The notes below the pieces were generated by a model. The model was not told the origin of the DNA. It was given only the letters and a program-made list of their open reading frames with translations, and did no database searches. Positions 8,842 to 42,002 of a DNA stretch of 64,000 nucleotides are shown in pieces (within the stretch, counting starts at the first letter, position 1; every line of letters starts with the position of its first letter). The position numbers were made by a program, and so were the translations under genes. The stretch lies in IMG/VR virus record IMGVR_UViG_3300028840_006907, positions 128,001 through 192,000 of that record; one strand, given 5' to 3'. The DNA comes from a virus.

Positions 8842-8868
8842 TAATTCATTAATATCGATTTAAATAGT

Positions 8869-9478: not shown

Positions 9479-9481
9479 GAT

Positions 9482-10566: not shown

Positions 10567-10612
10567 GTAAATATTCCTCTTAAAATTGTGCCTTGAAAAC
10601 TTGCACCGTTTT

Positions 10613-25078: not shown

Positions 25079-25095
25079 TTTGTTTTAAATTACAT

Positions 25096-25887
25096 TTATA
25101 TATCTAAATGGCAAATACGAGGCATTTCCATTTTATGAGCATTCTTTTCATGTCGTTCTAGATATAATTCAAGAACTTTCATTTTTCTTTTTTCTATTGT
25201 TAACATAGATTTCATCGCTTCAAGTCCTTTGATAGTTTTTAAACCACCTAATTTTTTACAAAAATCCATAGCCCATTCCAATTCAGAATATGTAGCTCCA
25301 ATCTGATCTTCATCAGTTCTGCCATCTTCCCATAATCCATCAGTAGGTTTTGCTGTTAAAATATCTGAGTTCACTCCAAGATAGGCTCCCATACCATATA
25401 CCTCAGATTTGACTAGCTCTCCTATTGGACTTATATCAACACCACCATCACCGAATTTTGTAAAGAAACCAATTCCGAAATCTTCAACCATATTCCCAGT
25501 ACCAACAACATAATAATTATGGGTATTTGCGATAGCATAAAGAGCTACCATTCGAAGACGGGATCTGGTATTAACCATGGCAAATTCATTGTAATAATTA
25601 CTATGATTAAAATTATTAAAGACAACTGAAAGATCTTCCGTATGACTGGTAACATTGGTATAGTCTTTTTTTAATTTTTCAACATGTGCTTCTGCTCTGG
25701 GAAGAATATCTTGATTTATTGGCATATGGGCACATATAACAGGTTTATAAGTTCTGGCACATAAATTTGATACAACTGCTGAGTCAATTCCACCTGAAAC
25801 TCCAACTACACAGCCATCTACATGGGATTCCTTCATGTCTCTAATAATCCAATTTACAATATGATCTGAGACTTTTTTATAGTCCAA
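25096..25887 (-). CDS. nadE: NH3-dependent NAD+ synthetase
   Basis: PP-loop GVSGGIDS near N-terminus; length 263 aa typical of NadE. Confidence 0.65.
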   Translation of the reverse strand: MDYKKVSDHIVNWIIRDMKESHVDGCVVGVSGGIDSAVVSNLCARTYKPVICAHMPINQDILPRAEAHVEKLKKDYTNVTSHTEDLSVVFNNFNHSNYYNEFAMVNTRSRLRMVALYAIANTHNYYVVGTGNMVEDFGIGFFTKFGDGGVDISPIGELVKSEVYGMGAYLGVNSDILTAKPTDGLWEDGRTDEDQIGATYSELEWAMDFCKKLGGLKTIKGLEAMKSMLTIEKRKMKVLELYLERHEKNAHKMEMPRICHLDI

Positions 25888-25899
25888 ATTTATCCTCCT

Positions 25900-27624
25900 T
25901 TAATTCATGGCAATTGAGTATATTTTTTTATTGTCAACAAATAACACTTTCATATGTTCATGGTATAATCGCATAGATACATTAATCGGTGTATTCGTAA
26001 TATCCTTACTTCCTTTATTATTTTTAAATAGAGACATTTTATCATTATCGACAGAGATGCACATTCCAGTAGGTAATGTAATAAAATTAACTGGATGGTA
26101 ATCAATCATATCTTCCTGTTTAATATCATAGCTAGTATGGGTTTTATCAAAACAAATTGTATATTTAAAATAACTTCCCTGTTTTTCTGTGACCACTATA
26201 CAGATTCCTTTATCATACCGGGCATCAATGATTCTTTGGCCGTCCAATTCTTTTACATAAGTATTAATACATTTCCCTCTTTCGAAAGGAATAGCTAATC
26301 GTATCTTTGTGAAATCATCCTGTACAATAACACCTCGGAAAGACTTATATGATTTGCTTATTCTACATACAGTTTTAGTCGTATGAATAACTCTCTGGAA
26401 TTTTTCAAAATGATTCTCTATCAATCTTCCATTATTAATGGTGTAAATATACCCATTATACCCCATTATGTCTTCAGCTTTGATGTCGGATATTGATTTA
26501 TTATTTAAATCAAAGAACTCAGCTTTTAAATTCTTGAAATAAACTATTAAGGGATCCGCTCCATAAGCTTCACACATGCCTACTATGGTTGATTTTAAAG
26601 GTTTATGGAACTTAACCACTTTATCTTTATTCTGGTCATATATGGCTTTAGAAGTTATCACAAAGCGTTTATCATTAAAGAAGAAGATATTCCGAATCGG
26701 TTCATTTACTTCGAATACTTTTTCTACTATGAAATCACCTCTACTAGTTATAGTTCTGGCAACTGCTGCTACAACCACGACCTCGTCCGGTAATGGCGGG
26801 ATGGATCTCTCATTATTTTTAAATTCTGATACATACCATTCAAAATGTTTTTTAGGGATCACAGAATAATCTTGGCACATGGCCGGTAATGGCTTTGCTC
26901 CTTTATCAAAATTTGAGACTCCATCATCCATCCTTTTAATCCATTGTTTCGGTTTATAATCGATATGTCTACTTTTGTAAGGGTGAATACCCAGATACAT
27001 TTGATAAGTTACGACACCCCAGGAGAACCAGTCAGAGTACTCAGTAAATTGAGCATTCTTAACCTGTCGATCTCGAACACTATCCATAAGAGCATCTGCT
27101 GGGAAGCTTTTTGTTTTCCAGGCATCCACATCAATGTGATAAACGGTCTTTAAATCACCGCTAAGAAGGAAATTCATCTCATTATAATCAACTACTAGGA
27201 AGCCATTTTTATGGATGTATTGTAGGGCTTTCTGCATTTTAAGAACTAGGTCAGCTATATCTGTTGGACTTAAATGTTTATTGTCTCTGAAAGTCTTAGT
27301 AAATACTTGGCAGAGAAATTCAACTCCATCAACATATCTCATTGTAAACCCAATGGGTGTGTGGTTCCTCACTTCATATAAAGGTTCTATGGGTGACAGG
27401 ATATCATCTCGTTTTAATTCGGTCAATTCGTGTATTTTTGCTTCTGGTATCATATTTTTAGTATCATGATAAATTTTATATGCAATCCCATTTAGATAAA
27501 AAACTGTTCCAAAACCACCAGAAGCTTTATAATTATCATCAGTCAAAGTAACAATTTCTTTTGTTGTCTGAACTTTGAATGACTTCTTTATTATCGGGTT
27601 CATTTTTGTTTTCGGTAAAATCAT
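25900..27624 (-). CDS. Ser/Thr protein kinase-like protein with large C-terminal domain
   Basis: Gly-rich loop GGFGTVF, lysine in IAYKIY, catalytic-loop-like HKNGFLVVDYNEMNFLL, DVDAW, SDWFSWGVVTY; about 330 aa C-terminal region unassigned. Confidence 0.55.
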   Translation of the reverse strand: MILPKTKMNPIIKKSFKVQTTKEIVTLTDDNYKASGGFGTVFYLNGIAYKIYHDTKNMIPEAKIHELTELKRDDILSPIEPLYEVRNHTPIGFTMRYVDGVEFLCQVFTKTFRDNKHLSPTDIADLVLKMQKALQYIHKNGFLVVDYNEMNFLLSGDLKTVYHIDVDAWKTKSFPADALMDSVRDRQVKNAQFTEYSDWFSWGVVTYQMYLGIHPYKSRHIDYKPKQWIKRMDDGVSNFDKGAKPLPAMCQDYSVIPKKHFEWYVSEFKNNERSIPPLPDEVVVVAAVARTITSRGDFIVEKVFEVNEPIRNIFFFNDKRFVITSKAIYDQNKDKVVKFHKPLKSTIVGMCEAYGADPLIVYFKNLKAEFFDLNNKSISDIKAEDIMGYNGYIYTINNGRLIENHFEKFQRVIHTTKTVCRISKSYKSFRGVIVQDDFTKIRLAIPFERGKCINTYVKELDGQRIIDARYDKGICIVVTEKQGSYFKYTICFDKTHTSYDIKQEDMIDYHPVNFITLPTGMCISVDNDKMSLFKNNKGSKDITNTPINVSMRLYHEHMKVLFVDNKKIYSIAMN

Positions 27625-28487
27625 TAATATTCCTCATTTAAATAAATAGTAGCAGTACCAACGTCATCATAATGATGCCAATTATGTTTTTTAACTTTCT
27701 TACCAAAAAAGATCATGCGCTTTTTTACAAATTCACCGGTAGTGTTTTTAAATCCAATAAATTCGGGTATTGTAATATCTAATCCTATATCTTTTTTATA
27801 ACTATCTCTGTAGGTTGATATACCATCTGTACATATTGTAACAGATAAGAGTTTATCCTTCATAATATTGGAAATTTCTTCGGAATAGATTGTATCAAAA
27901 GGTAATGAAGATTCAAGAGGATTTTCTAGCCCCTTTTCTCCTGACAAAGTAATAATTTCCCGAAAGCATTGAGGATTATCTTCACCTTTAATAGCACAAT
28001 TTTTTAAATAGACTGTTCTATCACTTATTAGATAAAATGGGGCATTTAAGGAATAATCTATTTTCATTATTAGCTGATAATTACCGCCATCTTCTTTTCT
28101 ATAATTAGCTGTAATGACACCATCACCCCATGCAAATACCAATACTCTTGAAGACAATCTTATAGTTATTAATAATGTGGCTTCCAAAGCCTTAGGAGTA
28201 ATGGGGTATATCTTTCTTATTTCATCAGCTCTTTTGTGAATGCCGTTTCCGAGATAAAATGAGAGTTCTTTCAGATTTAATCGTTCGAATAATCCAGTTT
28301 GGATACAAAATTCAATATTATATTTAGCAACATGACATAATATTTGAGCACCTACTTCAGAATGATCCGCAGAAGAACATCCATCTGCAACGATGCCATA
28401 CTCAATTCCTTTAAAAGAGCCACTTAATGCATAGTCTTGACAGACTAAATGAGTGCTTCCTTTTTCATAATATGAGTCACAGCTCAC
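27624..28487 (-). CDS. PP2C-family protein phosphatase-like protein
   Basis: YGIVADGCSS, VFAWGDGVI, TICTDGIST, DDVGTATIYL resemble PP2C metal-binding motifs; GTG start behind AAAGGAGG. Confidence 0.5.
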   Translation of the reverse strand: MSCDSYYEKGSTHLVCQDYALSGSFKGIEYGIVADGCSSADHSEVGAQILCHVAKYNIEFCIQTGLFERLNLKELSFYLGNGIHKRADEIRKIYPITPKALEATLLITIRLSSRVLVFAWGDGVITANYRKEDGGNYQLIMKIDYSLNAPFYLISDRTVYLKNCAIKGEDNPQCFREIITLSGEKGLENPLESSLPFDTIYSEEISNIMKDKLLSVTICTDGISTYRDSYKKDIGLDITIPEFIGFKNTTGEFVKKRMIFFGKKVKKHNWHHYDDVGTATIYLNEEY

Positions 28488-28546
28488 AATTACCTCCTTT
28501 TAGTAAGCACAGAAGGCTCCATTACAGAGCCTTCCTGCAAAAATTC

Positions 28547-29314
28547 CTAGTTAAATTTGAAATCTTTAATTGGTTGTGAAGGTTGTCCGGTGCCGAGGGC
28601 ATCTGACTGTGAGCTAACACTCTGACTCATAAACTGGGCTAGTTTAGCTAATTTTGATTCAGAAACATCACCCATTGATATATATTCATCAAGTCCAGCT
28701 TCTTCTTTGAAATCCGTAAGTAATTTCTTTAAATCTTTTCTACCATCATTAACACCAATAAGAATGGTACGAACTGATTCCATCGCTTCATCTTCATCAT
28801 TCATACTGTCTAATGTTTCTTTTATCATTTGTGGAGTAACACCGAATTCGGGGCAATTATCTTCACCATCAGTAATTATGAAAACCATTCCATTAGCATT
28901 TACGATCCTTTCAGAATTATAGAGCTTATTTATATAATCTCTCATGACGTCCAAACCACAAAGAGTCGCTTGAAAAAGATTTGTAGCATTCGCTGGAAAG
29001 ATCACATCGTCGTAATTATCTAGTTCAATATCACTCAGAAGCATCCATCCATGAATTTCCTGGATACCTCCATTATTAAAAGCGATAACACGTAATAAAA
29101 GATTCAAAGCTCGTGGGGAGCCTTTACATGACCCTACACATGCTTTTATCATTTTTTCCAGACCTGTTTTAAACCCTTTCACTGAATAGGTTTTATCAAC
29201 GATTATAGTGACTGCTGTATATTCTGTAGCTCCAAGTCTATCAACTTTAACTTTTGTATAATCGAATTTATGGAGAGATACATCGGAATCACTTACATTC
29301 ATAAACTTAGGCAT
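28547..29314 (-). CDS. von Willebrand factor A (vWA) domain protein, TerY-like
   Basis: VFIITDGEDN and vWA-like alternation of hydrophobic strands; first gene of the vWA / PP2C / kinase triad. Confidence 0.5.
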   Translation of the reverse strand: MPKFMNVSDSDVSLHKFDYTKVKVDRLGATEYTAVTIIVDKTYSVKGFKTGLEKMIKACVGSCKGSPRALNLLLRVIAFNNGGIQEIHGWMLLSDIELDNYDDVIFPANATNLFQATLCGLDVMRDYINKLYNSERIVNANGMVFIITDGEDNCPEFGVTPQMIKETLDSMNDEDEAMESVRTILIGVNDGRKDLKKLLTDFKEEAGLDEYISMGDVSESKLAKLAQFMSQSVSSQSDALGTGQPSQPIKDFKFN

Positions 29315-29326
29315 AAGTTATCCTTT

Positions 29327-30154
29327 CTAGAAAAAGTCCACTGTTGTAGCAACCTGCATACCATAATCATCTGCAGTATACTTGTTAATAAAGTCTTCAC
29401 CATTTTGCTCACATCCAGGTACACTTGAAGTAGCATCTTTGAGTAAAACGAATTTTTTAACTTGGTCGGCACCTAAATATTCAAAGATATCTCTGAATGT
29501 AAAGGAATAGCAGTGTGAAAGAGCTTCACCAGCTCCAAGAATTATATCATATTCCTTGATTACATTGATAAAATCTTCGTTTAATCTGGTTCCTTCATCC
29601 TCTGGGTCAATCACGTCAGCCACTAATGCTGAATAGTGCTCAGTGAAAGGATTACTCCCTTTGGTGGTACGGGGAGCAATACCGTAATAAGTGGCTTCCC
29701 ATTCAGAGACCGCATTGAGAAATTCAGGCTCTAACATTTGTCCATCACTTCCGATAATACAATGTTCAGGCCATATCATTAATTGATATCTGTTATTAGC
29801 CTTTAATTGTTTCAAGTAGTCAACATAACGCTCTTGAAAGCCTGGATTGAAAGCACGGTATTCTCCATCTAAGACCATTTCTAAAGTTAAGTACGTAGGT
29901 ACAGTATTCCCTTTGTGAAGGAAAATAGGTGTGGGGTGGTTTCCCTCTCTGTCAATCCAAGATCGGCTGTGAGCCACGTGGAGCTTATAATGTGAGTCCA
30001 TCGTGATTTGGATTTCATCAATATCACCCCCGAATTTTCGAATCATTTTTGAAAGTCTTGCCATGTCTTCAACGGCACCAGGAACAGTGAGAGTTCCCCT
30101 TGTAAAGTCTTTTTGAGGGTCAATTACCACAAGGCACACTTTAGGTTTTTCCAT
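29327..30154 (-). CDS. pncA: isochorismatase-fold hydrolase, nicotinamidase (PncA)-like
   Basis: VIDPQKDF (catalytic Asp region), WPEHC (nicotinamidase-type motif), candidate catalytic Cys in ALSHCY. Confidence 0.5.
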   Translation of the reverse strand: MEKPKVCLVVIDPQKDFTRGTLTVPGAVEDMARLSKMIRKFGGDIDEIQITMDSHYKLHVAHSRSWIDREGNHPTPIFLHKGNTVPTYLTLEMVLDGEYRAFNPGFQERYVDYLKQLKANNRYQLMIWPEHCIIGSDGQMLEPEFLNAVSEWEATYYGIAPRTTKGSNPFTEHYSALVADVIDPEDEGTRLNEDFINVIKEYDIILGAGEALSHCYSFTFRDIFEYLGADQVKKFVLLKDATSSVPGCEQNGEDFINKYTADDYGMQVATTVDFF

Positions 30155-30201
30155 ATCTTATCCTCCTTTAAGATTTAGTATATGTTATCTGTTATTTATA
30201 A

Positions 30202-30444
30202 TTAAAGCAACCCTTTTATATCAGCCCTTTCAATATCAGTTCTGTTAAAAAAGTTCTTATTTCCTTTTTTTCTAGGTTCTGGTAATACCCCGCATTTTAT
30301 ACGACGGTATATAGTTTGTTTGGATATATTATATTCAGTACAAATATCTCTCAAACTAATTTCATCTCTATGATGTTTGTAAAGTATTTTAGCTACTTCT
30401 TCTGCTATAGCTTTTGCTAATTTTTTAATATCTGCATCATCCAT
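30202..30444 (-). CDS. small HTH DNA-binding protein
   Basis: ISLRDICTEYNISKQTIYRRIKCG helix-turn-helix-like segment. Confidence 0.4.
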   Translation of the reverse strand: MDDADIKKLAKAIAEEVAKILYKHHRDEISLRDICTEYNISKQTIYRRIKCGVLPEPRKKGNKNFFNRTDIERADIKGLL

Positions 30445-30451
30445 AATATAT

Positions 30452-31624
30452 TTATATCATTAAATCTTTTTTACAATGTACAATCATATCTTTATTACCA
30501 GTGTTCTTTCCTTCGTCATCTGATAACTTGACTGTGTCAATCCATCTGCCATTTATCATACAGGCTATCATTTTAATAACAATATTCAATGGTATGACAT
30601 CTACGTCATTTGTAAACCAGGTTCCAATTCCATATGCATCTCTGATCAAATTGATGCAAGCTTTATGGATAGATTTCACTTTATCTATACTGTTAATAGC
30701 ATCAGAGAATACCAATGTTTTAAGCATCGGATCAATTCTTAATTTTTGGTATTTACTTACTGATTTAGTAATGAAATCAAAAGGTGAACCACTATCTTGC
30801 CGGAGACCATCAAAAAGTTTCGCAAAAAATGTATTGAATGTTTTTAGGAATACATCAGTAGTAAATGTATCTGGAAGAGCAATTCCAAGATCTCCTTGAA
30901 ATATATCAGACCATATTTTCAGAGCCATCTCATTAGCCATACGAAATCCATACATAGCTGCATGGAATTGATACCATTCATGAGCTTTTGTTCCTATGGG
31001 AGTTAAATTGTATTTCTTTGCTAGATAAACATTACTAGGTCCAGAGAAACAACTACCTAGATATTGCTTTGCATCACGAACTACTTCATCATGATTCTTT
31101 AGAGAGTATCTTCTACGAGTACCAAATTCAGCGATGGGTACTCCGATTTCTTTAAGAGCCATAAATTTCAGACGATTTCTTTCTTTACGTTCCTTACGAA
31201 TCATCTTTGTCTTACCAGTTTTCTCAAAATAAAGTTGACTGATAGTAGCCATCAAAGGTACTTCCCAAAGAATCTTTCGGTACCAGGGTCCTATATACTT
31301 ACAATGAAAATTAGATCCTTCTTGTGTTAATATTATCTCATCTGGGTTATACCGGTACCCACTAAGAAGATCGATATAGGCAGGATTTAAATAATAACAT
31401 TTTTCTTTAAGAAAGTCTATATCATCTTTGCTTAATGTAAAACCACGAAATGTGTCTATAATTCTCCTTAATTCATCGGCAAAGCCATCTGGAAACTCTC
31501 TACCATCACGGTTTATAAATTGGTACATAGCGAGAGCATTGGGGTATTTCTGACATGCCCCACACTGCATAGTGAATTTATACACATCATTATCGAGTAT
31601 ACCAGCTACGTACTCATTCTCCAT
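30452..31624 (-). CDS. pncB: nicotinate phosphoribosyltransferase (PncB-like)
   Basis: DNDVYKFTM, EFGTRRRYS, GPSNV...GTKAHEW match the NAPRTase signature pattern. Confidence 0.65.
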   Translation of the reverse strand: MENEYVAGILDNDVYKFTMQCGACQKYPNALAMYQFINRDGREFPDGFADELRRIIDTFRGFTLSKDDIDFLKEKCYYLNPAYIDLLSGYRYNPDEIILTQEGSNFHCKYIGPWYRKILWEVPLMATISQLYFEKTGKTKMIRKERKERNRLKFMALKEIGVPIAEFGTRRRYSLKNHDEVVRDAKQYLGSCFSGPSNVYLAKKYNLTPIGTKAHEWYQFHAAMYGFRMANEMALKIWSDIFQGDLGIALPDTFTTDVFLKTFNTFFAKLFDGLRQDSGSPFDFITKSVSKYQKLRIDPMLKTLVFSDAINSIDKVKSIHKACINLIRDAYGIGTWFTNDVDVIPLNIVIKMIACMINGRWIDTVKLSDDEGKNTGNKDMIVHCKKDLMI

Positions 31625-31943: not shown

Positions 31944-32017
31944 CTAAATACATAACTCCTAAATAGAATAAAAGACCAAAAATAGCAAATAAACTTAAGA
32001 GTATAAAATATGCTTTA

Positions 32018-32548
32018 TCATCTTTGGTCCATTTCATCATTAAGCCCTAACTTTTCAGAATATTCCTCAAAAAGAAATCTATGTTTATCACTTTTTGATA
32101 AATTGTAGTCTTCCCAAATATCCTCTACTATAGATGTACCATAAAAACATATCCCTGCACAATTATTACTATTGTATTCGTTATAAATTTTCATACAATC
32201 CTCACTCCACTCTATCAAATGACATCCTGCAGGAGGGGGAGGGAATGTTTCTACGAATTTTTTATAGTATCTGGATATTATTGGTAGTTTATTATATTCT
32301 ACAATAATGTAGTCAAAAGTTGAAGCATGAATTAATCTTATCCATCCTGGAATTTTTTCATCTTTTACTGCATCCCATAATCGTTTATGATTTTTTTCAA
32401 TTAACCATGTATCAAGATCACCTTTCTTTAAATATTTATTCCATATTGAATTCCATATGTAAGCGAGACCTCCCCAGGCATCCCTATATTCTTGATAGGT
32501 CTCTACAAAGCCGTTTAATTCCGCTACTTTTAATTCTGTGTAACTCAT
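32018..32548 (-). CDS. hypothetical protein
   Basis: ORF track. Confidence 0.4.
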   Translation of the reverse strand: MSYTELKVAELNGFVETYQEYRDAWGGLAYIWNSIWNKYLKKGDLDTWLIEKNHKRLWDAVKDEKIPGWIRLIHASTFDYIIVEYNKLPIISRYYKKFVETFPPPPAGCHLIEWSEDCMKIYNEYNSNNCAGICFYGTSIVEDIWEDYNLSKSDKHRFLFEEYSEKLGLNDEMDQR

Positions 32549-32580
32549 ACTTTTATGCTACCTGGTTCATTTTGTAAATG

Positions 32581-32793
32581 TCATATTTTAGGATTTTTCC
32601 ATTCTTCCAGTTCTCTAATTTTTATTATTTGGTCAAGAGATAAATCTGTATATTCAGAAATACCAAATTTTTTCATATATTTTTTAACGACTTTGCCTCT
32701 GGCTTCTAAAATTTTCTCAGTTTCTTCAGCCGCTTCTTTAGAACTAGTTGTATAATGTGTCTCACCGAATGGCGTTTTAATAGGATAATTCAT
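32581..32793 (-). CDS. hypothetical small protein
   Basis: ORF track. Confidence 0.35.
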   Translation of the reverse strand: MNYPIKTPFGETHYTTSSKEAAEETEKILEARGKVVKKYMKKFGISEYTDLSLDQIIKIRELEEWKNPKI

Positions 32794-32799
32794 TATTTT

Positions 32800-33726
32800 T
32801 TACCTTTTATGTGTGAGTAATTTTACTTTTAGATTTTTAATATTTTCGTTTTTATTATCACTACTGATGATCTGTGATAATATATCGACAATACCTGGAT
32901 TCTCCAGTTCCTGAACCATCATTTTACTTATCATACCATCAATAGAGATACAGCTATTGATTGTCATTTTTTTCATATTCTTGATATTATTCGCGTTGAC
33001 CACTTCAACGATGGTATTTATTTCACGTTTTATCTCTTCTTCAATGGATTCAATAAGGGTACCTATGACAAAGGTGCGCTCATCAGATCTAGGATCATGG
33101 GGATCATCTGCTATTACAAAAACAGCCTTACATTCTTTGACATTTGCTTTATGCAGAATATCCAGATCAGTAGGCATTCCCCTAATGAAAGAAATTTCAG
33201 TTTTAATATCTTCCGGAAGCTCTTCTAATTTTTCAGTTATTAGTACCATTTTACATTTAGAATATTTGGAAGTATTTTTTATTTCGTGAATGAAATATTT
33301 AATTTTCTTTTCATTGGGATATCCACAAAGGATAACATGATTTTTAAAGGCTATATCCATTAAGCCTCTCCTTTTCCTATTAATAAGATCGATTAATATA
33401 CTGGTTATAACACCGATTAAAGAGCCTATAATACCTATCCCAAGTATCATACAGGCATATGAAATGACAAACCGTCCTATAAAGGTTTTTGCATAAAAAT
33501 CCCCGTATCCTACGGTAGTCATTGTTACAATAGCCCACCAGATTGAATCCAGTAAAGAAATGTCTTGAGAGTCCCTTTCAACAAAATAGAAAGTAACTCC
33601 GAAGAATAGATTTAATACGGCAGCCAAACCTATTACGTATATTAAATCTCTTTTAAAGAGACTCCCAAAACGTAAAAATAATCTGAATATATTCATAAAT
33701 TTTATAATAGACCGTGGGAGAAACAA
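32800..33726 (-). CDS. potassium channel with RCK/TrkA-like cytoplasmic domain
   Basis: Selectivity filter TVGYGD flanked by two hydrophobic helices; VILCGYPNEKK Rossmann-like start of an RCK domain. Confidence 0.6.
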   Translation of the reverse strand: MFLPRSIIKFMNIFRLFLRFGSLFKRDLIYVIGLAAVLNLFFGVTFYFVERDSQDISLLDSIWWAIVTMTTVGYGDFYAKTFIGRFVISYACMILGIGIIGSLIGVITSILIDLINRKRRGLMDIAFKNHVILCGYPNEKKIKYFIHEIKNTSKYSKCKMVLITEKLEELPEDIKTEISFIRGMPTDLDILHKANVKECKAVFVIADDPHDPRSDERTFVIGTLIESIEEEIKREINTIVEVVNANNIKNMKKMTINSCISIDGMISKMMVQELENPGIVDILSQIISSDNKNENIKNLKVKLLTHKR

Positions 33727-33800
33727 CTTTAACTTTATATTTTTAATATTTAGCTTCGTTTATACGAAGAAGGGTAGATCCCCCACGGCTATGTTATTGA

Positions 33801-34469
33801 TTATAAATCATCATACCCTGGTAGATCTTGGCCTAATGCTTTTTCTGTTTCAGCATCAAGACTACCAGTAGGATCGGCACTTTGTTCAACAAGAGCATCA
33901 GAAGCATCTAACTCAGCTTGCATTTTTGCTTCTCTTTCCTTGAATTTAGCAACTGCTGACATGGAACTATCAGTATTTATTGTAGCAATGGCATCATTGG
34001 ATTTTTTAACTTCTTCCATTGTCTTCATGCGATCTATCGCACGTTTCATCGTGTCCAAATTTCCAGATAATGTAGTTACATTGCTCTCTTGCTTTTTATA
34101 AATGTTTTGATACTGTTCAAGACTCTTTTCCAGTGTCTGTAATTCGTTATCAAGTTCTAATTTAATAGCATATTGTTGTTTAGCCAGATCTTCATGTCCC
34201 GCCGTTTTTAATTTTTTTACTTTATCTATGCGACTAACAATTTCTTCTTTTTTAGTACTCACTTTTCTCTGTAAGCCCATTATTGAAGCTTTAGTATTTG
34301 CTAATCCAACTCTTGCTTTTTGAAAGTCCTCTTGTGCCTCTTCAATGTCTTGTTTAGCAAAAGCAATTCGATTTCCATCTTCAATTTTTTCTTCCACTTC
34401 GTTCATCTTTGCTTTACCAAATTTGAATATTGTTCCAAATAAACCCATTATCTTATCCTCCAATTTCAC
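33801..34469 (-). CDS. pspA: PspA/IM30-family protein
   Basis: N-terminus MGLFGTIFKFGKAKMNEVEEKIED matches the PspA/Vipp1 start pattern; remainder coiled-coil. Confidence 0.5.
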   Translation of the reverse strand: MKLEDKIMGLFGTIFKFGKAKMNEVEEKIEDGNRIAFAKQDIEEAQEDFQKARVGLANTKASIMGLQRKVSTKKEEIVSRIDKVKKLKTAGHEDLAKQQYAIKLELDNELQTLEKSLEQYQNIYKKQESNVTTLSGNLDTMKRAIDRMKTMEEVKKSNDAIATINTDSSMSAVAKFKEREAKMQAELDASDALVEQSADPTGSLDAETEKALGQDLPGYDDL

Positions 34470-34857
34470 TAATTTTTTTGATATTTTGACTAACTGTTAA
34501 GACCATCGATACAATTGACGCCTGCAATTCGTTAGAATCAAGGTTTGCGATTTCCAAGACATCTTTAAAAATGATTTTACCTTTACTTGTGTCCCATCCG
34601 AACCCACCGTGAACTGCTTCATCAGCATTTAGCTTTAATAGCAACTCACCAAATTCTTGTGATACTCGTTCGGCTGGACAAATATCCATGAGGAAAATTA
34701 TTGTTGTTTCCTCAACGTCAATAATTACTTCGAGCCCGGTATCGGGTTCGGTTACCAAGAAGATATCATCGGTTTTTTGTTCCGTATCGAAATCTCCTAA
34801 TTCTGTCAACATTTCGAAAACTTTAATTCCGTTTTCAATTTCTTTTTGACTTGCCAT
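34453..34857 (-). CDS. YbjN-like hypothetical protein
   Basis: Weak resemblance only; acidic 134 aa protein. Confidence 0.3.
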   Translation of the reverse strand: MASQKEIENGIKVFEMLTELGDFDTEQKTDDIFLVTEPDTGLEVIIDVEETTIIFLMDICPAERVSQEFGELLLKLNADEAVHGGFGWDTSKGKIIFKDVLEIANLDSNELQASIVSMVLTVSQNIKKISEIGG

Positions 34858-34888
34858 GATTTTTTATTCCTTTTTTATTTGTTATTTG

Positions 34889-35455
34889 TTATCTCATTGA
34901 AAGAATACTTACTTCGTGTTCTTTCACTTGACATCCATACCATATTTCTAGATATTCGTCATCATCACTACCTGACCATTCCAGAAATGCTATTGGATTA
35001 TTAATTTCACTATTCGTACCATATTCACAGATATGTAATGGCTCTCCTTCTTCTCCATTAACTTCAATTTCAACACCGAAAATAGGGGAAGATTTTTGAA
35101 TCCATGTTATATCTTCACCATCAAGTGTAATCTCGAAGTCATGTTCAAAATCTTCTCCATCTTCATCAATAATAGCTCCATAATAATCTGAAGCATCACC
35201 TTCCTGATCCAGATAGAATAATAAGATGTCAGTTACATTATCTACTTTCCGGATCATCAGCATATATTTACGTTTATCCGGAGCTATGACGATATAAGCA
35301 GTATAAGTGAAAAGATCACTTGGTTCGTGATAAATACGTACCTCTTCGATTTTGAAATCCACTCCATCACTAGCTTTAAAAGTAGCAATGGTTTGTAAAT
35401 CGGAGAGGGTCATAATATCACCTTCTCTGTGACCTAGTAATTCTTTTATTTCCAT
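34889..35455 (-). CDS. hypothetical acidic protein
   Basis: ORF track. Confidence 0.4.
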   Translation of the reverse strand: MEIKELLGHREGDIMTLSDLQTIATFKASDGVDFKIEEVRIYHEPSDLFTYTAYIVIAPDKRKYMLMIRKVDNVTDILLFYLDQEGDASDYYGAIIDEDGEDFEHDFEITLDGEDITWIQKSSPIFGVEIEVNGEEGEPLHICEYGTNSEINNPIAFLEWSGSDDDEYLEIWYGCQVKEHEVSILSMR

Positions 35456-35456
35456 C

Positions 35457-36296
35457 TTAACTACCGCCCTTCATTTTAGTTATAATTACGCCAACTATTA
35501 CAGCGACAACTATAAATCCAATAAAAAGAAGAATGTACAGAACTATTTTTGCATCATTTTCATTTGTAGGTTTTCGATCTACATGTACGACTTGTGGTGT
35601 TTGTACATGTTGTACACGAGGAGTAGTTAAAGCAGTTAAAACGAGGGCATCAACAAGAAAATCATCATCGTCATAGACAACAAAAACCCCTGAGCTATTA
35701 CGATAACCGTATCTGCCATTATAAAAGTCAGTTTCATACCGTTGCCCGTTAATTTCACGGTATCTAGGAACATGATCTGGCATTACGTCAGGTTCTTTAT
35801 CATATGTTTGATTACTTAAAGATTTTCGATAAGCTGTTTCAGCTTCTTTTTTAGATTTAAAAGTTTTTCCTTTTAAAGCCTTGTGTTTTGACAGCTTTTT
35901 ATCAACAGCACTTTTCTGGGAAGCATTAAGTTTAGGAACAGTTGTAGTCTGATTTTTACTAGTTCCATCCTTTCCCTTTATAGTACTTGAACCGGTAGGT
36001 CGTGTTAAAGATGACTTGGTATTAGTACCTGTATTATTTTTTAATTCTGCAGCTTTTTTCTCAGCTTCTAATCGCTTTTTCTTTTCTGCTGCGGTTTCAA
36101 CTTTCTTCTTATCATCTTTTTTCTTTACTTTTGATGTCCCGGTAGGACGGGTAACTTGTTTCTTTTCTTGTTTCTTTTTGCTATCGCCACTCTTGCTACT
36201 ACCGGATTTTGATTTAGATTTTGCAGCATAAACATCATCAATTCCGGCACCAGAAACCAAAAGTGAAAGAAATAGAATTATAAAAATTCTTTTCAT
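35457..36296 (-). CDS. Lys-rich protein with N-terminal signal-like and C-terminal transmembrane segments
   Basis: N-terminal MKRIFIILFLSLLVSGAG, K/S/T-rich low-complexity middle, C-terminal IVLYILLFIGFIVVAVIVGVII. Confidence 0.45.
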   Translation of the reverse strand: MKRIFIILFLSLLVSGAGIDDVYAAKSKSKSGSSKSGDSKKKQEKKQVTRPTGTSKVKKKDDKKKVETAAEKKKRLEAEKKAAELKNNTGTNTKSSLTRPTGSSTIKGKDGTSKNQTTTVPKLNASQKSAVDKKLSKHKALKGKTFKSKKEAETAYRKSLSNQTYDKEPDVMPDHVPRYREINGQRYETDFYNGRYGYRNSSGVFVVYDDDDFLVDALVLTALTTPRVQHVQTPQVVHVDRKPTNENDAKIVLYILLFIGFIVVAVIVGVIITKMKGGS

Positions 36297-36304
36297 AATA
36301 ACCT

Positions 36305-36338
36305 TCCATTTAAAAGTGATGGGGGCTAATGAGCCCCC
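36305..36338 (-). terminator. terminator-like hairpin (minus strand)
   Basis: GGGGGCT-AATG-AGCCCCC stem-loop followed on the minus strand by a U-rich stretch, in the 47 nt gap after the flotillin gene. Confidence 0.35.
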
Positions 36339-36343
36339 TTTGC

Positions 36344-38209
36344 TTATGACGCTTCGACTTCTTCTATGAATTCTTGCTCTGCAGGTTCTGGAACTGGTTC
36401 TGTTACCTGTTCTTCGACCTGGGGAGATTCTTTAGGTTTTGTGGAAGTCATCATATTAGACACATTCTTCACTACATTTGGAAGATTATCACCTAATCCT
36501 GCTTCTTTTAATAATTGATCTACAACAGGAGCCTGAGCGCGATATCCAAGAAGTTGATCCAATAAAGATTGAGTAGAAAAACCTCCTGCAGACATTTTTG
36601 ACCCACCGTTACCATTACTATGGCCATTGCTACCGGTCAAACCTGATACGTTGATAACTTTGAAAGCTTCAATTTTTTCAAGGGGTTTTACACTGGATTC
36701 AATTACTGCTGATATGTGTTCAATTATTTGGAGTTTTACACGCATATCAACAATGTCTTTAGAGAGCCTGTTTTCAGCTTCATTGAGTTTTTCCTGACCT
36801 TCAGCTTCGACTTCGTATTTTCTTTCATCGGCATCAGCTTGAATTTTGATAGCCTCAGCTTTGGCTTTGGCTTCAATTTTGATAGCCTCAGCACGATCTT
36901 GAGCTGCTTCTTTTTCAGCCTGTGCAAGAACTTTAATTTTGGCTGCATCTGATCCGGCTACTTCTTCAGCTCTAATAATTGTAATTTCTCTGGCACGATT
37001 AGCAATTTCTTTTTCACGAGCGGTGGTTACTTTTTCCTCTGCAGAAATAGCGAGTGCTCTAGCTTCATTTGCTTCCTGATCAGCCAAAGAGGTTTCTTTA
37101 GATTTATTAGCAACTTCAATATCTCTTTCCTGTTCAGCAAGTTTTATTGCTTTCTGTTTTTCGATGGTAGCTGACTCTACTGCTTGTTCTTTAACAATAG
37201 TAGCTGATTCAATTGCTTGTTCTTTTTCAATATTGGCTTCTTGTAAAGCTTTTTCTTTTATAATATTTGCTTCGGCAATGGCTTGTTCTTTTCTAATATT
37301 CTGTTCTTCAAGAGCTTTGGTAGTTTCGATTGTTTTCTTTTTAACTTCTTTTTCAGATTCTATCCTTGCTTCTTGGGCTATCTTATTTTGTTCAGCATTA
37401 AATTTTTCTTTTGTGGCATTTTCTTCTGCTGTCCTAGTAGCAATTTCACGTTCTTGTTCAAGTCTAGAATACTCTTTTTCTTTATTAATTTTTAAAGTCT
37501 GTTGTTCAGCTTGAAGATTTTTTGTTTCAATTTTTACTAGATTATCTCTTTCAATCTCATTACGTTCTTTTCTACGCTCTTCGATGATTCTAGTTAATGC
37601 TGTCAATCCCTCAGCATCAAAAGCATTATTCTCATTGAAGTGCTCTCTACTGGTTTGATCAAAACCTGTAAGTGACACAGTTTCAAGCTCTAAGCCATTT
37701 TTCTTAAGGTCTTCCAGAACATTGTTTTGGACTTTTTGCACAAAATCAGCACGTTGCTCATGCAGTTCTCTCATTTGCATTTGAGCAGCAACAGCTCTTA
37801 AGGCGTCAACGAATTTACCTTCAATAAGTTCACGTAGTTTCTCTGGGTCAAGAGTGCGGTCACCAAGAGTTTGAGCGGCATTTGCTATGGAATCAGCTTC
37901 TGGTTGTACCCGCATATAAAACTCTACAAGAACGTCAACTCTCATACGATCTTTTGTAATTAATGCGTCCTTTTCATTTCTTCTTACCGGTAATTTTAAA
38001 GTACTAAGTTTTACCCAGGTTATTTGATGAAGTACAGGTAATACTACTGCTCCACCTTCTTTTATAACTTTTTTCTTGCCCATACCAGTACGGACAAAAG
38101 CCATATCAGATGAAGCTTTTACGTACATCCTAGCAATAATTAATCCTATAACAATTAGTGCCACTAGGATTATACCTGCCATAATTAAAATAGGCATAAG
38201 GTTTTCCAT
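36344..38209 (-). CDS. flotillin-like SPFH/band-7 protein
   Basis: N-terminal TM helix, SPFH-like region, then long E/A/K coiled-coil with repeats (EANIIKEKALQEANIEKEQAIESATIVKEQAVESATIEKQKAI). Confidence 0.55.
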   Translation of the reverse strand: MENLMPILIMAGIILVALIVIGLIIARMYVKASSDMAFVRTGMGKKKVIKEGGAVVLPVLHQITWVKLSTLKLPVRRNEKDALITKDRMRVDVLVEFYMRVQPEADSIANAAQTLGDRTLDPEKLRELIEGKFVDALRAVAAQMQMRELHEQRADFVQKVQNNVLEDLKKNGLELETVSLTGFDQTSREHFNENNAFDAEGLTALTRIIEERRKERNEIERDNLVKIETKNLQAEQQTLKINKEKEYSRLEQEREIATRTAEENATKEKFNAEQNKIAQEARIESEKEVKKKTIETTKALEEQNIRKEQAIAEANIIKEKALQEANIEKEQAIESATIVKEQAVESATIEKQKAIKLAEQERDIEVANKSKETSLADQEANEARALAISAEEKVTTAREKEIANRAREITIIRAEEVAGSDAAKIKVLAQAEKEAAQDRAEAIKIEAKAKAEAIKIQADADERKYEVEAEGQEKLNEAENRLSKDIVDMRVKLQIIEHISAVIESSVKPLEKIEAFKVINVSGLTGSNGHSNGNGGSKMSAGGFSTQSLLDQLLGYRAQAPVVDQLLKEAGLGDNLPNVVKNVSNMMTSTKPKESPQVEEQVTEPVPEPAEQEFIEEVEAS

Positions 38210-38244
38210 TTGTTAAATCCCTTTCAGTTGATTTTTTAATTTAA

Positions 38245-38949
38245 TTAAAGTTCATTTTCGATACATCTAAATGTACCGTCTTTCTCCTTTCGAATTATTA
38301 AGACCTCATCACCAGCTTTAAATTCAGCGTCATCTTCTTCGGGTTCCAGGTAAACAAGATGTTGCTGTCCGTGTTTATCTTTAAGCCGTGCTTCAGCTCT
38401 AAGACCTCTTTTTGTACTACCAACAGTAATAGTTGCAAGGGTTCCAATAAATTCATCAGATGAGACCGCAGTGCTCTCATCTTTGAATGCAATATGACTG
38501 CATAATTTTGATATATAACGTGATATCAAAATCGAAAGAACAAAAGAGGCTGGCACAATTATAAACCATGGAAAGTAATGACTAGTATATTTTTTTATAT
38601 AAAATTGACCTATTAGACCTATACCGGAGAATGAAGATAAAAATATGATGAAGTAAACGAGCATCGGTACTTTTCCTTTCACCCAAATAAATAGCTTGGA
38701 TAAAGCAGGAACACTTGCTCCTTCTCCTACATCAGCTTCTACATCTACATCTGCGTCAGCATCTATGTCAATTTCAATTTCAGGTACGTCTATATCTGGT
38801 ACATCTACGTCAGCATCAAAATCTGGAATTAATCCATCTAGGAAACCAGAGATCACTCCGGATGAGAGTACTTCTAATAAAAAAATTAATACTAACAATA
38901 CTAATGCTACTGAAAAGGCCGTATTTTCAGTAGAAAGAAAGAGTTCCAT
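38245..38949 (-). CDS. NfeD-like membrane protein
   Basis: TM segments, acidic DxDxD linker, C-terminal OB-like tail; trimmed to ATG behind AAGGAAG; lies next to the flotillin gene. Confidence 0.45.
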   Translation of the reverse strand: MELFLSTENTAFSVALVLLVLIFLLEVLSSGVISGFLDGLIPDFDADVDVPDIDVPEIEIDIDADADVDVEADVGEGASVPALSKLFIWVKGKVPMLVYFIIFLSSFSGIGLIGQFYIKKYTSHYFPWFIIVPASFVLSILISRYISKLCSHIAFKDESTAVSSDEFIGTLATITVGSTKRGLRAEARLKDKHGQQHLVYLEPEEDDAEFKAGDEVLIIRKEKDGTFRCIENEL

Positions 38950-39076
38950 TTTACTTCCTTCTTTGTAATTTGTAAATCTTATGGTTTTGGTTAATAGTGT
39001 ATTGAGACTTTTATGGTTAAAGGATTGGTTATTGCTATATTGTCCTCCTTTCAATTATTTAATTGAATATATTTAT

Positions 39077-39970
39077 TTAAGCAGCTCTACTCATATTATA
39101 TATGTTACCCATTTTTCTAAATTCTTCTTCGTCAATTTGAATCATGTTAAGGAATGCAATGACGTTATCAGTAGGTGGTATATTAGAATCTTTGATCCGT
39201 ACACAAACTTCCTCAATAATTTTTCCAGCTTTCCATACTCTGGTATGCGACCGGTTTCTATATACCTGATAGATTTTACCACTCTGCCCCTTTACCAGGA
39301 CAAAACCGTATTTGATGTATTTTCTAAATTCAGCTTCAGTGATCTCTTCGCGTAGGGTTTCGATTGCAATCTGTTCATTCTCAGGAATATTGCTTATAGG
39401 ATTGGCTCTTGATCTGATATTTATAGCTAAGTTTCTTCTGAAGTTATCTTTGATTTGCTGTCTCTTGATCTCTTTTTGTATTTCACTATAATTATCATCA
39501 CCTTTAAAGGTGAGAGTAGGCCAACTTATATAACCATCAATATTTGGATATTCTATAATGTACTTTGATGGATCGTAAGTATATTGAGCTGAATCTACAA
39601 CTCTTATTTCAGCCCCACTTGTTGCTGATCTTGTGGTAGGACTGTAATAAATTTCTGTTTTGGTAGCTGTACCTGTCCCTTGATAGACAGCATTGGTAGA
39701 CCCTGTGTCAAATATACAATTTCCAGATATTTTAATGGTAGATCCCGTGCTTCCACTATAGATATAATTAGCTGCTGATCCCGATGTAATATTGATCCTA
39801 GTAGTGTTAGCAGTACTACTTGTTGATACCAAGGCATCATATTCCGAGTATCTATCAGAGGTAATTGTACTGTTAGGGAAATAATCATTATTATTGTTTG
39901 CTCCACTTGGAGGATAATATAGGTATTTATCAGAAAATTCGAAAGTAGCTGGTGTAGCCATTATCAGCAA
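39077..39970 (-). CDS. hypothetical protein with S/T-rich N-terminal half
   Basis: ORF track. Confidence 0.4.
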   Translation of the reverse strand: MLIMATPATFEFSDKYLYYPPSGANNNNDYFPNSTITSDRYSEYDALVSTSSTANTTRINITSGSAANYIYSGSTGSTIKISGNCIFDTGSTNAVYQGTGTATKTEIYYSPTTRSATSGAEIRVVDSAQYTYDPSKYIIEYPNIDGYISWPTLTFKGDDNYSEIQKEIKRQQIKDNFRRNLAINIRSRANPISNIPENEQIAIETLREEITEAEFRKYIKYGFVLVKGQSGKIYQVYRNRSHTRVWKAGKIIEEVCVRIKDSNIPPTDNVIAFLNMIQIDEEEFRKMGNIYNMSRAA

Positions 39971-40260
39971 TCCTTTAAATGATTAATAAGTTTTTGTTTG
40001 ATACTACTACTGTTGTCAAGAAGGAATATGTTAAATTTACCTTGTTTTTTAATTAAACATAGACTGGTCTTAGTATTGCCTTGAATTTCTACCATGCCCT
40101 CTTTCTTTTTGAGTGCGTTAAAAGATTCCTCAACTTCCTTTTTTAAATCTTCCAAATCTAATTCAAATTTTATACTTCTGGAATCATCATGGAAATGGAT
40201 ATCTCCATTATTTACATGTATTCTTAGACCTGAAATTGTATCTTCGTTTGTACCACCCAT
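39964..40260 (-). CDS. hypothetical protein
   Basis: ORF track. Confidence 0.35.
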   Translation of the reverse strand: MGGTNEDTISGLRIHVNNGDIHFHDDSRSIKFELDLEDLKKEVEESFNALKKKEGMVEIQGNTKTSLCLIKKQGKFNIFLLDNSSSIKQKLINHLKDC

Positions 40261-40338
40261 AGTATTTTAATCCCTGTTTTATGGTCACCGGAGAAAGGTT
40301 GAAGCCCTCTCCGATGGTTCAAATTTATATAACTGCAA

Positions 40339-41160
40339 TTAAGCAGCCATGTTTTTTTGTTCTTCTAATTGATTTATTTTCATAAATATTTGTAAGGCTT
40401 TAGCGACTTCATCTATCCCCCAGAGTTCATAGTCCAGAAATTTAATCATGTCTGTTGGATCAGATCCGAGGATAGCAAAGGAATAAAGAATACCTGGCAT
40501 AATTGTCCCTATATCCCGAATGTAAAATTCCATGTTATTCTGACCATAGAATTCTCTTTTAATATCTGCTTCCATAACCCCTGTATCCATATATTTTGTA
40601 GCGCACCAAGCTACATGGTTGCCGTGTAATATATGTCTCATTTCCTCTGAATTAGCATTCTTTAAAGCAGCCGTTAACATATTTAAGACAGCTTTTTCAG
40701 TGTAGAGCACATCTTTTGAACCAAGAAAAGAGGAAATACTTTTAGCTAAAGACATAGTTGCTGTCTCGTTACTTATTCGGGCCTTTTCCGGTAAATCCTC
40801 AAATTTAACATAATTAGGATTCCACACTTTTTCTATTGGTTCAGCATCCGATTGAATACCTAAAGCTAACATCGCTTCTTTGGACAGATCTCTGACAAAA
40901 ACAGCATTTTTTTCTTTTCCTGTAAATGTGTAATCTCCCATTGGACCTCCTCCATACTCTATTCTGTACGTATCGCCAATTGGAAAAAAACCTCGGAAAG
41001 GATGATCTGGATTTTTTAAAAGTTTGGTTTGTCCTTCATACCATAATTGGTGAGGTAGGCGAGATGGTATGGCCATATTTTTGAGAAGATAGAGATAAAA
41101 GGCACTCCCACTTCCCGGAATACTACTCGCATTTTTTGTAGGATAATATCCCATAATCAC
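40339..41160 (-). CDS. hypothetical protein (273 aa)
   Basis: ORF track; no family recognised. Confidence 0.4.
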   Translation of the reverse strand: MIMGYYPTKNASSIPGSGSAFYLYLLKNMAIPSRLPHQLWYEGQTKLLKNPDHPFRGFFPIGDTYRIEYGGGPMGDYTFTGKEKNAVFVRDLSKEAMLALGIQSDAEPIEKVWNPNYVKFEDLPEKARISNETATMSLAKSISSFLGSKDVLYTEKAVLNMLTAALKNANSEEMRHILHGNHVAWCATKYMDTGVMEADIKREFYGQNNMEFYIRDIGTIMPGILYSFAILGSDPTDMIKFLDYELWGIDEVAKALQIFMKINQLEEQKNMAA

Positions 41161-41257
41161 ATACTCCTTTATGATTTAAATGTATGTTTATGTTATTTAT
41201 GACTAACTTTTTCCAAGCATCTCCTCTTCACACTTAGAAAAAAGTTGTTTTCTATTC

Positions 41258-41626
41258 TTAAAATACAGATTCCACTAGTTTAAAAAAGAATTGTGAACTC
41301 TGTTTTATATATTCAGACCCTTCCCGTAAAACGAAAGGCATTTTCTTCTCAAAATCTTCTAAAATATCTTTAGCTTTCTTTTTATCTTTCCCCATTACAG
41401 TGATCATAATATTATATGAATCACCATCAGGAGTTCTGACTATGCAATCTCTTTGGGATATTAAAACCATTAATGAATCTGAAGGTGTAGCTCCTTTTAC
41501 ACGTAAAGCGTATTTTTTTACTCCTGGAAATCCTAAAGAAAGTTCAAAGAAGTCATTGGAATAACGTTCTATGTGTTCTCTAATATCATCATTAACAGTA
41601 CCGACTTTTACAGCATTATCTTCCAT
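41258..41626 (-). CDS. hypothetical protein
   Basis: ORF track. Confidence 0.4.
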   Translation of the reverse strand: MEDNAVKVGTVNDDIREHIERYSNDFFELSLGFPGVKKYALRVKGATPSDSLMVLISQRDCIVRTPDGDSYNIMITVMGKDKKKAKDILEDFEKKMPFVLREGSEYIKQSSQFFFKLVESVF

Positions 41627-42002
41627 TCTGGCGTTCCTTTACAACTATTAATTTTGCTTCTTCCCAATTTTCCTGAAAGAATTCTCCAATACCTTTAAAA
41701 ATGAAATACAGAGATACTATAAGAGTCCCTATAGAAAGTATTTGCATTCCTAGAAAAGTACTTTGAAATAAGAAATGGTATCTAGGTAAAGAATCTACAG
41801 CCAATGCTATGAAATTATTTGAATAAACTAAATTGCTTGAATGAAGAAATCCGAGAATGATTGAACCTATAATAGTTGCCCCTATTAATACACTTAACAG
41901 AAATAAGGAAACGTATTTATACATTTTTACCGTTGCTTCACCAAAAAATAATTCTGTTATTTCTTGGAATTTCAATCTGAGAAATATTTGGAAGGTTCTC
42001 AT
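41616..42002 (-). CDS. hypothetical membrane protein
   Basis: Several hydrophobic helices (LFLLSVLIGATIIGSIILGFL etc.). Confidence 0.4.
   Translation of the reverse strand: MRTFQIFLRLKFQEITELFFGEATVKMYKYVSLFLLSVLIGATIIGSIILGFLHSSNLVYSNNFIALAVDSLPRYHFLFQSTFLGMQILSIGTLIVSLYFIFKGIGEFFQENWEEAKLIVVKERQNGR

Follow-up and report, generated by a model that had tools for sequence, protein, structure and literature searches.

Analysis of a 64,000-nucleotide (nt) stretch of viral DNA, positions 128,001 to 192,000 of IMG/VR record IMGVR_UViG_3300028840_006907 (hereafter called the window), revealed a module of seven close-packed minus-strand genes at positions 32800 to 38949. From 5' to 3' they encode a YqiJ/NfeD-like protein, a flotillin, two proteins designated X and Y, a CesT/Tir-like protein, a PspA/IM30 homolog, and a K+ channel. 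PspA is named phage shock protein (Psp): it is induced by filamentous-phage infection. On balance, the module is probably a bacterial Psp-type operon that was captured and retained by a lineage of very large phages, and it would act as a membrane-maintenance operon keeping the membrane of the infected cell sealed and energised; the comparisons show the domain identities, the gene order and its conservation, the X-Y fusion with its topology, and the bacterial origin, whereas all functional steps of this reading are inferred from the families involved. Capture is favored because of the comparisons described below, which revealed a conserved gene cassette, fusions of X with Y, bacterial gene rows, and the operon types of Ravi et al. 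(PMC11237479).

A tBLASTN map of metagenomic loci revealed that the order X-Y-CesT-PspA recurs in about 20 phage loci (L007, L008, L010, and L019 to L035, in our numbering of fetched loci), with 28 to 74% protein identity; short contigs hold only parts of it. Since the gene order recurs on independent metagenomic contigs at this level of identity, the gene set is real and not a product of chance. The closest relative of the flotillin lies on the 29.5-kb contig L007, which keeps the order YqiJ-flotillin-X-Y-CesT-PspA and carries a kinase gene and a PP2C phosphatase gene nearby. The window genes for the kinase, the PP2C phosphatase, and NAPRT and the gene at 40339-41160 are found near the cassette in related loci at varying positions. 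The varied positions of these shared genes therefore point to one broad lineage in which the cassette was kept and the surroundings were reshuffled. An earlier sequence-only reading of this stretch had grouped the genes as one module. The grouping was borne out by the gene order conserved across the phage lineage, by the recurrent coupling of PspA to a channel gene, and by that of flotillin/NfeD to PspA, and because of the same observations a role of the module at the host membrane can reasonably be inferred.

Analysis of X and Y linked the cassette to bacteria. Neither protein gave a family match in Pfam, NCBIfam, or PHROG. The lysine-rich, membrane-anchored protein of the sequence-only reading was recovered as X: it contains 15.8% lysine, has a net charge of +26, a signal-like segment (residues 1 to 24), and a C-terminal hydrophobic segment (residues 246 to 279), and shares the conserved core KKEAxxAY...RPxHIP...GxYG with its homologues. 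Y has a net charge of -31 and no hydrophobic segment. Word-indexed searches found 9 proteins with Y and 5 with CesT; bacterial homologues were reached only by a full HMMER search, which with the Y profile yielded a family of 104 representatives at 50% clustering. None of the 38 family members tested has a Pfam domain. An AlphaFold2 model of Y built from 42 sequences (predicted local distance difference test score, 95.3) is almost all-beta, and comparison of this predicted fold with PDB and BFVD gave no significant match. The longer homologues are fusions composed of a signal peptide, a serine/glycine-rich linker, the X domain, one membrane helix, a further linker, and the Y domain; this architecture is present in eight full-length homologues (P0193, P0196, P0210, P0214, P0219, P0225, P0233, and P0235). 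In the window, X terminates right past the membrane helix and Y starts one nucleotide on. Because longer homologues fuse both domains and because X ends after its membrane helix with Y adjoining, X and Y amount to a single-pass membrane protein split in two, of which the X part lies outside the cell and the Y part is cytoplasmic. The assignments of Y to DUF2491/YjfK and of X to DUF1190/YjfM were rejected (hhalign probability, 0.1), as was that of Y to DUF4178 (Pfam matches in 0 of 38 family members).

A fused X-Y gene was found in five Verrucomicrobiota assemblies (L036 to L040). In the four of these loci that reach far enough, and also in L013, a gene for a double-DUF350 membrane protein lies upstream of X-Y. 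The gene row double DUF350, X/Y, a 146- to 147-amino-acid (aa) open reading frame (ORF), and PspA is present in L040 (Verrucomicrobiales) and in L041 (an unclassified bacterial assembly), with X and Y split in L041. These rows resemble the window cassette in that X and Y domains, fused or split, are followed by a small ORF and then by PspA. They differ from it in beginning with the eight-helix double-DUF350 protein and in having neither a channel nor a flotillin nearby, and their 146- to 147-aa ORFs gave no CesT_Tir_1 score.

Ravi et al. (2024, mSystems, PMC11237479) described dyads of CesT/Tir-like protein and PspA in three operon types, without mention of viral genomes. In group 1, the dyad is accompanied by flotillin, YqiJ/YuaF, and an AAA+ ATPase; in the second operon type, by an eight-helix DUF350 protein, a lipoprotein, and an intracellular beta-rich protein; and in group 3, by an ATP-grasp ligase, a K+ channel with intracellular ligand sensing, DUF350, DUF1190, and DUF2491 (PMC11237479). 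As judged from its genes, the window module mixes elements of these types and fully fits none. It resembles group 1 in having the CesT/Tir-like gene directly 5' of a YjfJ-type PspA gene, a membrane-anchored protein with Band-7, coiled-coil, and Flot regions, and a YqiJ-type protein, but it differs in its phage-like setting and in its additional X-Y pair and K+ channel; an AAA+ ATPase with beta-propeller repeats, as in group 1, was not found within 32000-42000. With the yjfIJKLMC-type operon of Escherichia coli, which belongs to group 3, it shares a PspA of the YjfJ kind, a small chaperone-like protein encoded before it, and a linked K+ channel sensing an intracellular ligand. Unlike in that operon, however, the chaperone-like protein belongs to PF22550 and not to DUF2170/YjfI (BLASTP against E. 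coli YjfI gave E = 25, and a Pfam match to DUF2170 was not obtained), and no Pfam matches to ATP-grasp, DUF350, DUF1190, or DUF2491 were found in the module. The module is thus not a new kind of system, its parts and most of their linkages being known from bacterial comparative genomics. What is new is the retention in a phage lineage, the recurrent coupling of PspA with channels of two unrelated gating types, and the split X-Y transmembrane family.

The coordinates of the module are given in Table 1. Domains were called with Pfam profiles, and all listed domain scores exceed the Pfam curated cut-offs. The start codons used are ATGs with a Shine-Dalgarno-like sequence 5' of them, and they agree with the gene calls of public records; the YqiJ ATG at 38949, for example, is preceded by AAGGAAG, and the Joint Genome Institute (JGI) gene call likewise gives 234 aa. 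Intergenic gaps range from 1 to 105 nt, the stop codon is TAA in seven of seven genes, and G+C content and strand skew are uniform between the module and its flanks. The sequence-only reading had seen a run of minus-strand genes here. All the genes it named are present where it had placed them, and gene Y had been overlooked. The profile and structure searches it had called for gave Pfam scores well above the cut-offs for five proteins and identified MthK and Vipp1/PspA as solved relatives. The module likely consists of two units, namely, the YqiJ(NfeD)-flotillin pair and a five-gene cassette of X, Y, CesT/Tir-like protein, PspA, and channel, because a hairpin lies between flotillin and X and because relatives such as L008 carry the downstream cassette without YqiJ-flotillin. 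This hairpin (36321-36338) is a possible terminator or attenuator between the two sub-operons. The sequence TGTATAAT occurs upstream of six other window genes and nowhere inside the module.

Table 1. Genes and candidate regulatory features of the module, listed from 5' to 3' on the minus strand
Feature	Coordinates	Strand	Matches and remarks
YqiJ/NfeD-like inner-membrane protein, 234 aa	38245-38949	-	YqiJ_N 75.9 bits (3.8e-21); YqiJ_OB 73.8 bits (1.1e-20)
YqiK-type flotillin, 621 aa	36344-38209	-	Band_7 65.4 bits (9e-18); Flot 127.3 bits (4.8e-37)
G+C-rich hairpin between flotillin stop and X start	36321-36338	-	7 bp, 6 of them G-C; -18.5 kcal/mol, z -2.65
X, 279 aa, lysine/serine-rich, predicted secreted and membrane-anchored	35457-36296	-	no family match
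Y, 188 aa, acidic, predicted beta-rich and cytoplasmic	34889-35455	-	no family match; begins 1 nt past X stop
CesT/Tir-like (YbjN-like) chaperone-fold protein, 134 aa, small, acidic	34453-34857	-	CesT_Tir_1 69.1 bits (cut-off 27), 4.5e-19
PspA/IM30 (ESCRT-III superfamily), 215 aa	33801-34448	-	PspA_IM30 64.6 bits (cut-off 33.9), 1.3e-17
Structured PspA-channel spacer, possible leader	33697-33800	-	RNA fold -29.4 kcal/mol, z -4.0
MthK-like K+ channel, 298 aa	32800-33696	-	Ion_trans_2 53.8 bits (cut-off 22.5), 1.8e-14; Slo-like_RCK 43.7 bits (cut-off 24), 2.5e-11
Possible internal start, channel Met113	33358-33375	-	AAGGAGAGG, Shine-Dalgarno-like sequence 5' of Met113

The CesT/Tir-like protein is the usual partner of YjfJ-type PspA, and its gene lies directly 5' of PspA in most of the related loci of the tBLASTN map. 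It is the gene that had been called YbjN-like in the sequence-only reading, a name in keeping with an additional weak YbjN match of its homologue in L010. The identification of a PspA/IM30 homolog was likewise upheld. Residues 10 to 211 of this protein cover positions 2 to 200 of the 220-position PspA_IM30 profile, and residues 1 to 182 (beginning MGLFGTIF...), which take in the amphipathic N-terminal helix and the helical hairpin core, align with the structure of Synechocystis Vipp1 (E 1.1e-5). The N-terminal helix is MGLFGTIFKFGKAK, with a hydrophobic moment of 0.33 compared to 0.57 for Vipp1 and 0.45 for YjfJ. Identity with E. coli YjfJ is 25% (E 5e-8). On TIGR02977 the protein reached only 24.2 bits against a cut-off of 242.95, and searches of the seven module proteins against Pfam and NCBIfam gave no match to PspF, PspB, or PspC of the classical Psp system.

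The channel carries the filter TMTTVGYGD, with hydrophobic segments at residues 16 to 40 and 71 to 107 flanking the pore, and its RCK domain matched TrkA_N (25.6 bits) besides Slo-like_RCK. The K+ channel of the sequence-only reading, including its TVGYGD filter and RCK domain, is therefore borne out. Its best solved relative is MthK, a Ca2+-gated channel from Methanothermobacter (PDB 1lnq), with a continuous alignment over pore and RCK domain (E 5e-19; residues 28 to 260). Both proteins have a two-helix pore, a TVGYGD filter, and then one RCK domain, which is shorter in the window protein. In the alignment of the MthK Ca2+ ligands, E210 corresponds to glutamate and E212 to valine; D184 falls beside an insertion (IADDPHDPRSDE) and cannot be placed. 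Chlorovirus Kcv is likewise a K+ channel encoded by a virus. Kcv consists of a minimal pore that lacks gating domains, and it probably functions during entry, from the membrane of the virion, whereas the window channel is a gated bacterial-type protein within a PspA operon.

The channel ATG at 33696 has no obvious ribosome-binding site. The stem predicted in the spacer between PspA and the channel was more stable than its shuffled counterparts (0 of 200 shuffles were as stable); it spans an alternative TTG at 33726 and stops right in front of the ATG, and it could be a regulatory leader for the channel. Met113, at the junction of pore and RCK domain, lies 3 residues from MthK Met107 in the alignment; in MthK, this residue is an internal start supplying soluble RCK domains. 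By analogy, a start at Met113 might give a free soluble RCK domain, but purine-rich arginine/lysine codons alone could yield the motif that precedes it.

Comparison of the gene position after PspA in the relatives revealed a second type of channel. In 12 fetched loci, corresponding to 10 distinct contigs, this slot is associated with a GluR0-type channel that combines a periplasmic SBP_bac_3/Lig_chan domain with Ion_trans_2 (L008/L009, L010/L018, L014, L019, L021, L023, L024, L026, L027, L028, L030, and L035, where L009 duplicates L008 and L018 duplicates L010). The gene lies right after PspA in most of these loci and 1 to 4 kb downstream in L021, L026, and L028. An RCK-gated MthK-like channel occupies the slot in the window alone. 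Because the same slot holds two unrelated gating architectures (RCK and GluR0), this comparison argues that a gated K+-type pore would work together with the PspA cassette.

The flotillin consists of an N-terminal membrane anchor (hydrophobic residues 1 to 34), an SPFH/Band_7 domain, a coiled coil, a Flot domain, and an acidic tail. The coiled coil contains an 11-aa tandem repeat (33 nt, 3.6 copies, 37167-37300). The YqiJ-like protein is composed of an N-terminal membrane domain, an acidic repeat linker rich in D, V, and I, and a C-terminal OB fold. These architectures agree with the flotillin with coiled-coil repeats and the NfeD partner of the sequence-only reading, the latter matching YqiJ_N and YqiJ_OB. 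The acidic linker of YqiJ (DADVDVPDIDVPEIEIDIDADADVDVEADV) sits between hydrophobic segments 1 and 2 of the membrane domain and is encoded by short tandem DNA repeats (38727-38782), including an 18-nt repeat at 38727-38765. The flotillin is 48 to 56% identical to bacterial flotillin/YqiK proteins (Microbulbifer, Balneolaceae, and Chitinispirillaceae) and 53 to 63% identical to metagenomic proteins; the closest nonself matches, at 62 to 63%, are metagenomic. Sequence searches for solved-structure relatives of flotillin and YqiJ found none at E-value limits of 1e-5 and 0.01.

The 3' end of the YqiJ gene is separated from the flotillin start by 35 nt. As in yqiJ-yqiK of E. coli and yuaF-floT of Bacillus subtilis, the NfeD/YqiJ gene is immediately 5' of flotillin, and this pairing was also found in L002 to L004, L006, L007, and L019. 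The window, L007, and L019 are the only loci in the tBLASTN map with YqiJ-flotillin 5' of the cassette; in L011, a flotillin 3' end is present at this place. A triad of PspA, YqiJ, and flotillin was identified on the phage-like contigs L002 (397.8 kb; 8692-11827) and L003 (733-3805), the latter having the window gene 40339-41160 in common, and also on a Microbulbifer chromosome. In the Microbulbifer triad, PspA adjoins YqiJ-flotillin, whereas the window PspA is encoded downstream in another cassette and is of another subtype: the triad PspA of the phages is 40 to 42% identical to that of Microbulbifer and gave no BLASTP match to the window PspA. The flotillin pair thus has two distinct kinds of linkage to PspA.

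Sinorhizobium phage Phosso (469 kb; L006, PV764938.1) is the sole cultured phage with a full-length flotillin. Its genes for YqiJ, flotillin, an XpaC-like protein (PF10112), and TelA lie in a row (355001-359181); the Phosso record lists the products of the YqiJ-like and XpaC-like genes as hypothetical proteins. Phosso resembles the source of the window in being a very large phage with host-type envelope-stress genes in a small cluster, but its flotillin has 38% identity to that of the window, and neither PspA nor a channel adjoins it. In the Jug phages, which are also very large, a pspA-like gene adjoins terD, so that its partner differs from the CesT, X-Y, and channel genes of the window (PMC12880540). 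A DNA search of 32500-39500 against cultured phages gave a single 168-nt match of 68%. In tBLASTN against cultured phages, PspA had no matches and the channel matched pore fragments only, and IMG/VR scans with the flotillin, PspA, and Y alignment confirmed no relatives.

The source of the window looks like a very large phage. The exact module proteins were found on JGI contig Ga0180437_10000019, which is 388,651 bp long, and on other assemblies of up to 469,617 bp. The window itself holds 13 tRNA genes (117-21189) and encodes a UvsX-like recombinase, a sliding-clamp-like protein, and SbcCD-like nuclease subunits.

Several observations weigh against a captured membrane-maintenance operon of a phage. 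No virion or packaging gene (capsid, portal, or terminase) was seen within the 64-kb window, and the label "phage" is indirect because it rests on replication genes, tRNAs, and the 388.7-kb contig. The slot that follows PspA holds no channel in L007, the closest relative; the channel is hence dispensable. Several GluR0-type relatives carry the filters STGLGN or STGFGN instead of TVGYGD, from which it follows that K+ selectivity is not universal. The flotillin pair does not adjoin the cassette in most relatives. X and Y have no known biochemical activity, and the bacterial counterpart operons have no established function (PMC11237479). For the module itself, a promoter search found no convincing candidate, sigma-70-like sites being no commoner than in shuffles.

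The membrane-maintenance role could proceed as follows. The module proteins would be made in the infected cell and directed to the host cytoplasmic membrane. Together with its NfeD partner, flotillin would organise a scaffolded patch of membrane and so aid the recruitment of PspA; B. subtilis requires an SPFH protein for PspA to reach the membrane (PMC8581546). X-Y may serve as a split transmembrane sensor or anchor, and the CesT-like protein would hold PspA soluble until it is needed. PspA would then coat the stressed membrane as an ESCRT-III-type polymer and stop ion leakage. The K+ channel, gated from the cytoplasm through RCK in the window and by ligand from outside in the relatives, would set or buffer membrane potential or turgor. 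The net effect would be a membrane that stays sealed and energised through a long infection, with its collapse left to the lysis program of the phage.

Two narrower readings, which build on the abortive-infection and lysis-timing proposals of the sequence-only reading, draw on the same parts and appear to us comparably unlikely. The module might be a counter-defence device that neutralises abortive-infection effectors perforating or depolarising the membrane, with PspA patching the pores and the channel restoring the potential. The parts are those of membrane maintenance, PspA acts against ion leakage, and the module lies within a region of host-manipulation genes (NAD+ synthesis, kinase, and PP2C phosphatase); in phages, genes of NAD+ synthesis are commonly interpreted as counter-defence. 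However, this role is indistinguishable here from general maintenance of the membrane, the bacterial operons of origin are of the housekeeping or stress kind, and no similarity to known defence or anti-defence proteins emerged, PADLOC models giving nothing significant among the module proteins. The weak PADLOC matches were those of PspA to long SMC-like JetC/LmuB models (E >= 8e-5), as also to NCBIfam SMC models, and two of the channel (E >= 0.004) in which no matched stretch passes alone.

The module might instead control lysis timing or superinfection. Since the triggering of holins and the injection of DNA each require an energised membrane, the channel and PspA might hold the potential against early holin firing or might alter the membrane to block DNA injection by later phages; the periplasmic ligand-binding domain of the relatives' channel could sense outside signals. 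Against this control function, no holin, endolysin, or spanin gene was recognised beside the module, L007 does without the channel, and the effect is again indistinguishable here from general membrane upkeep. That the module is passenger DNA, either a recent host operon without a role in infection or bacterial sequence misjoined to a phage contig, is very improbable: the recognisable parts all have close bacterial counterparts (flotillin, 48 to 56% identity), but the reading is largely excluded because the cassette persists throughout a diverged lineage of phages, in which PspA falls to about 28% identity and the neighbors change, and the exact proteins occur on several independent assemblies of 0.2 to 1 Mb, G+C content and strand bias are as in the flanks, and the genes are all intact.

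Compared with these, membrane maintenance by a captured operon remains the reading we prefer. It can be extended to a more speculative model, to which we attach little confidence, in which the phage would use the cassette as an electrical control circuit: the channel would set the potential and PspA would seal the membrane, so that the phage, and not abortive infection or an early holin, would time the collapse. In relatives whose channel has an outward amino-acid-binding domain, infected cells could sense solutes of lysed neighbors and adjust lysis timing. In a bolder version still, PspA, as an ESCRT-III relative, and flotillin would reshape the host membrane into a phage compartment.

As the comparisons indicate, a phage lineage carries its own PspA and links it to an ion channel, and some members link it to a flotillin scaffold as well. 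If membrane maintenance is its role, very large phages take active control of both the intactness of the host membrane and its voltage, which would bear on the duration of infection, lysis timing, and evasion of membrane-targeting abortive-infection systems. X-Y is a new transmembrane protein made of two parts and linked with PspA in phages as well as in bacteria, and the compact phage versions of Psp-type operons are possible minimal systems for study.

The surroundings of the module contain further genes of host type. A set for NAD+ synthesis and salvage (24022-31624) comprises genes for an NMNAT-like protein (24022-24897), NAD synthase (25096-25887), and NAPRT (30452-31624), and is adjoined by genes for a Ser/Thr kinase (25900-27624) and a PP2C phosphatase (27624-28487). 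L007 and L014 likewise have the kinase-PP2C pair in the vicinity of the PspA cassette, and L030 has the kinase there. The module neighborhood also includes an acyl carrier protein gene. Among the tRNA genes is one for a suppressor tRNA with the anticodon CTA, which would read amber (21116-21189). The stop-codon recoding hinted at by this tRNA was unsupported: the window gives no sign of recoding because TAG still ends ORFs (10 of 74 long ORFs) and the coding fraction barely shifts on readthrough of TAG (from 0.762 to 0.770).

The 243-aa gene that follows PspA in L007 was considered as a hidden channel and rejected, as it is a paralogue of the window gene 39077-39970. The product of 39077-39970 gave no family match. 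Its family has a conserved C-terminal domain of about 120 aa (...GKIYQ.YRN..H.R.W..G...E..C..IKDS.IPPTD...GNIYNM), and paralogues flank the module on both sides, with copies in L007 (2016-2894 and 8555-8923) and L030 (9300-9665). Additional host-type functions are encoded on the same strand by genes for a family 9 glycosyltransferase, which is heptosyltransferase-like (49014-50534), and a full-length DnaJ (50770-51723).

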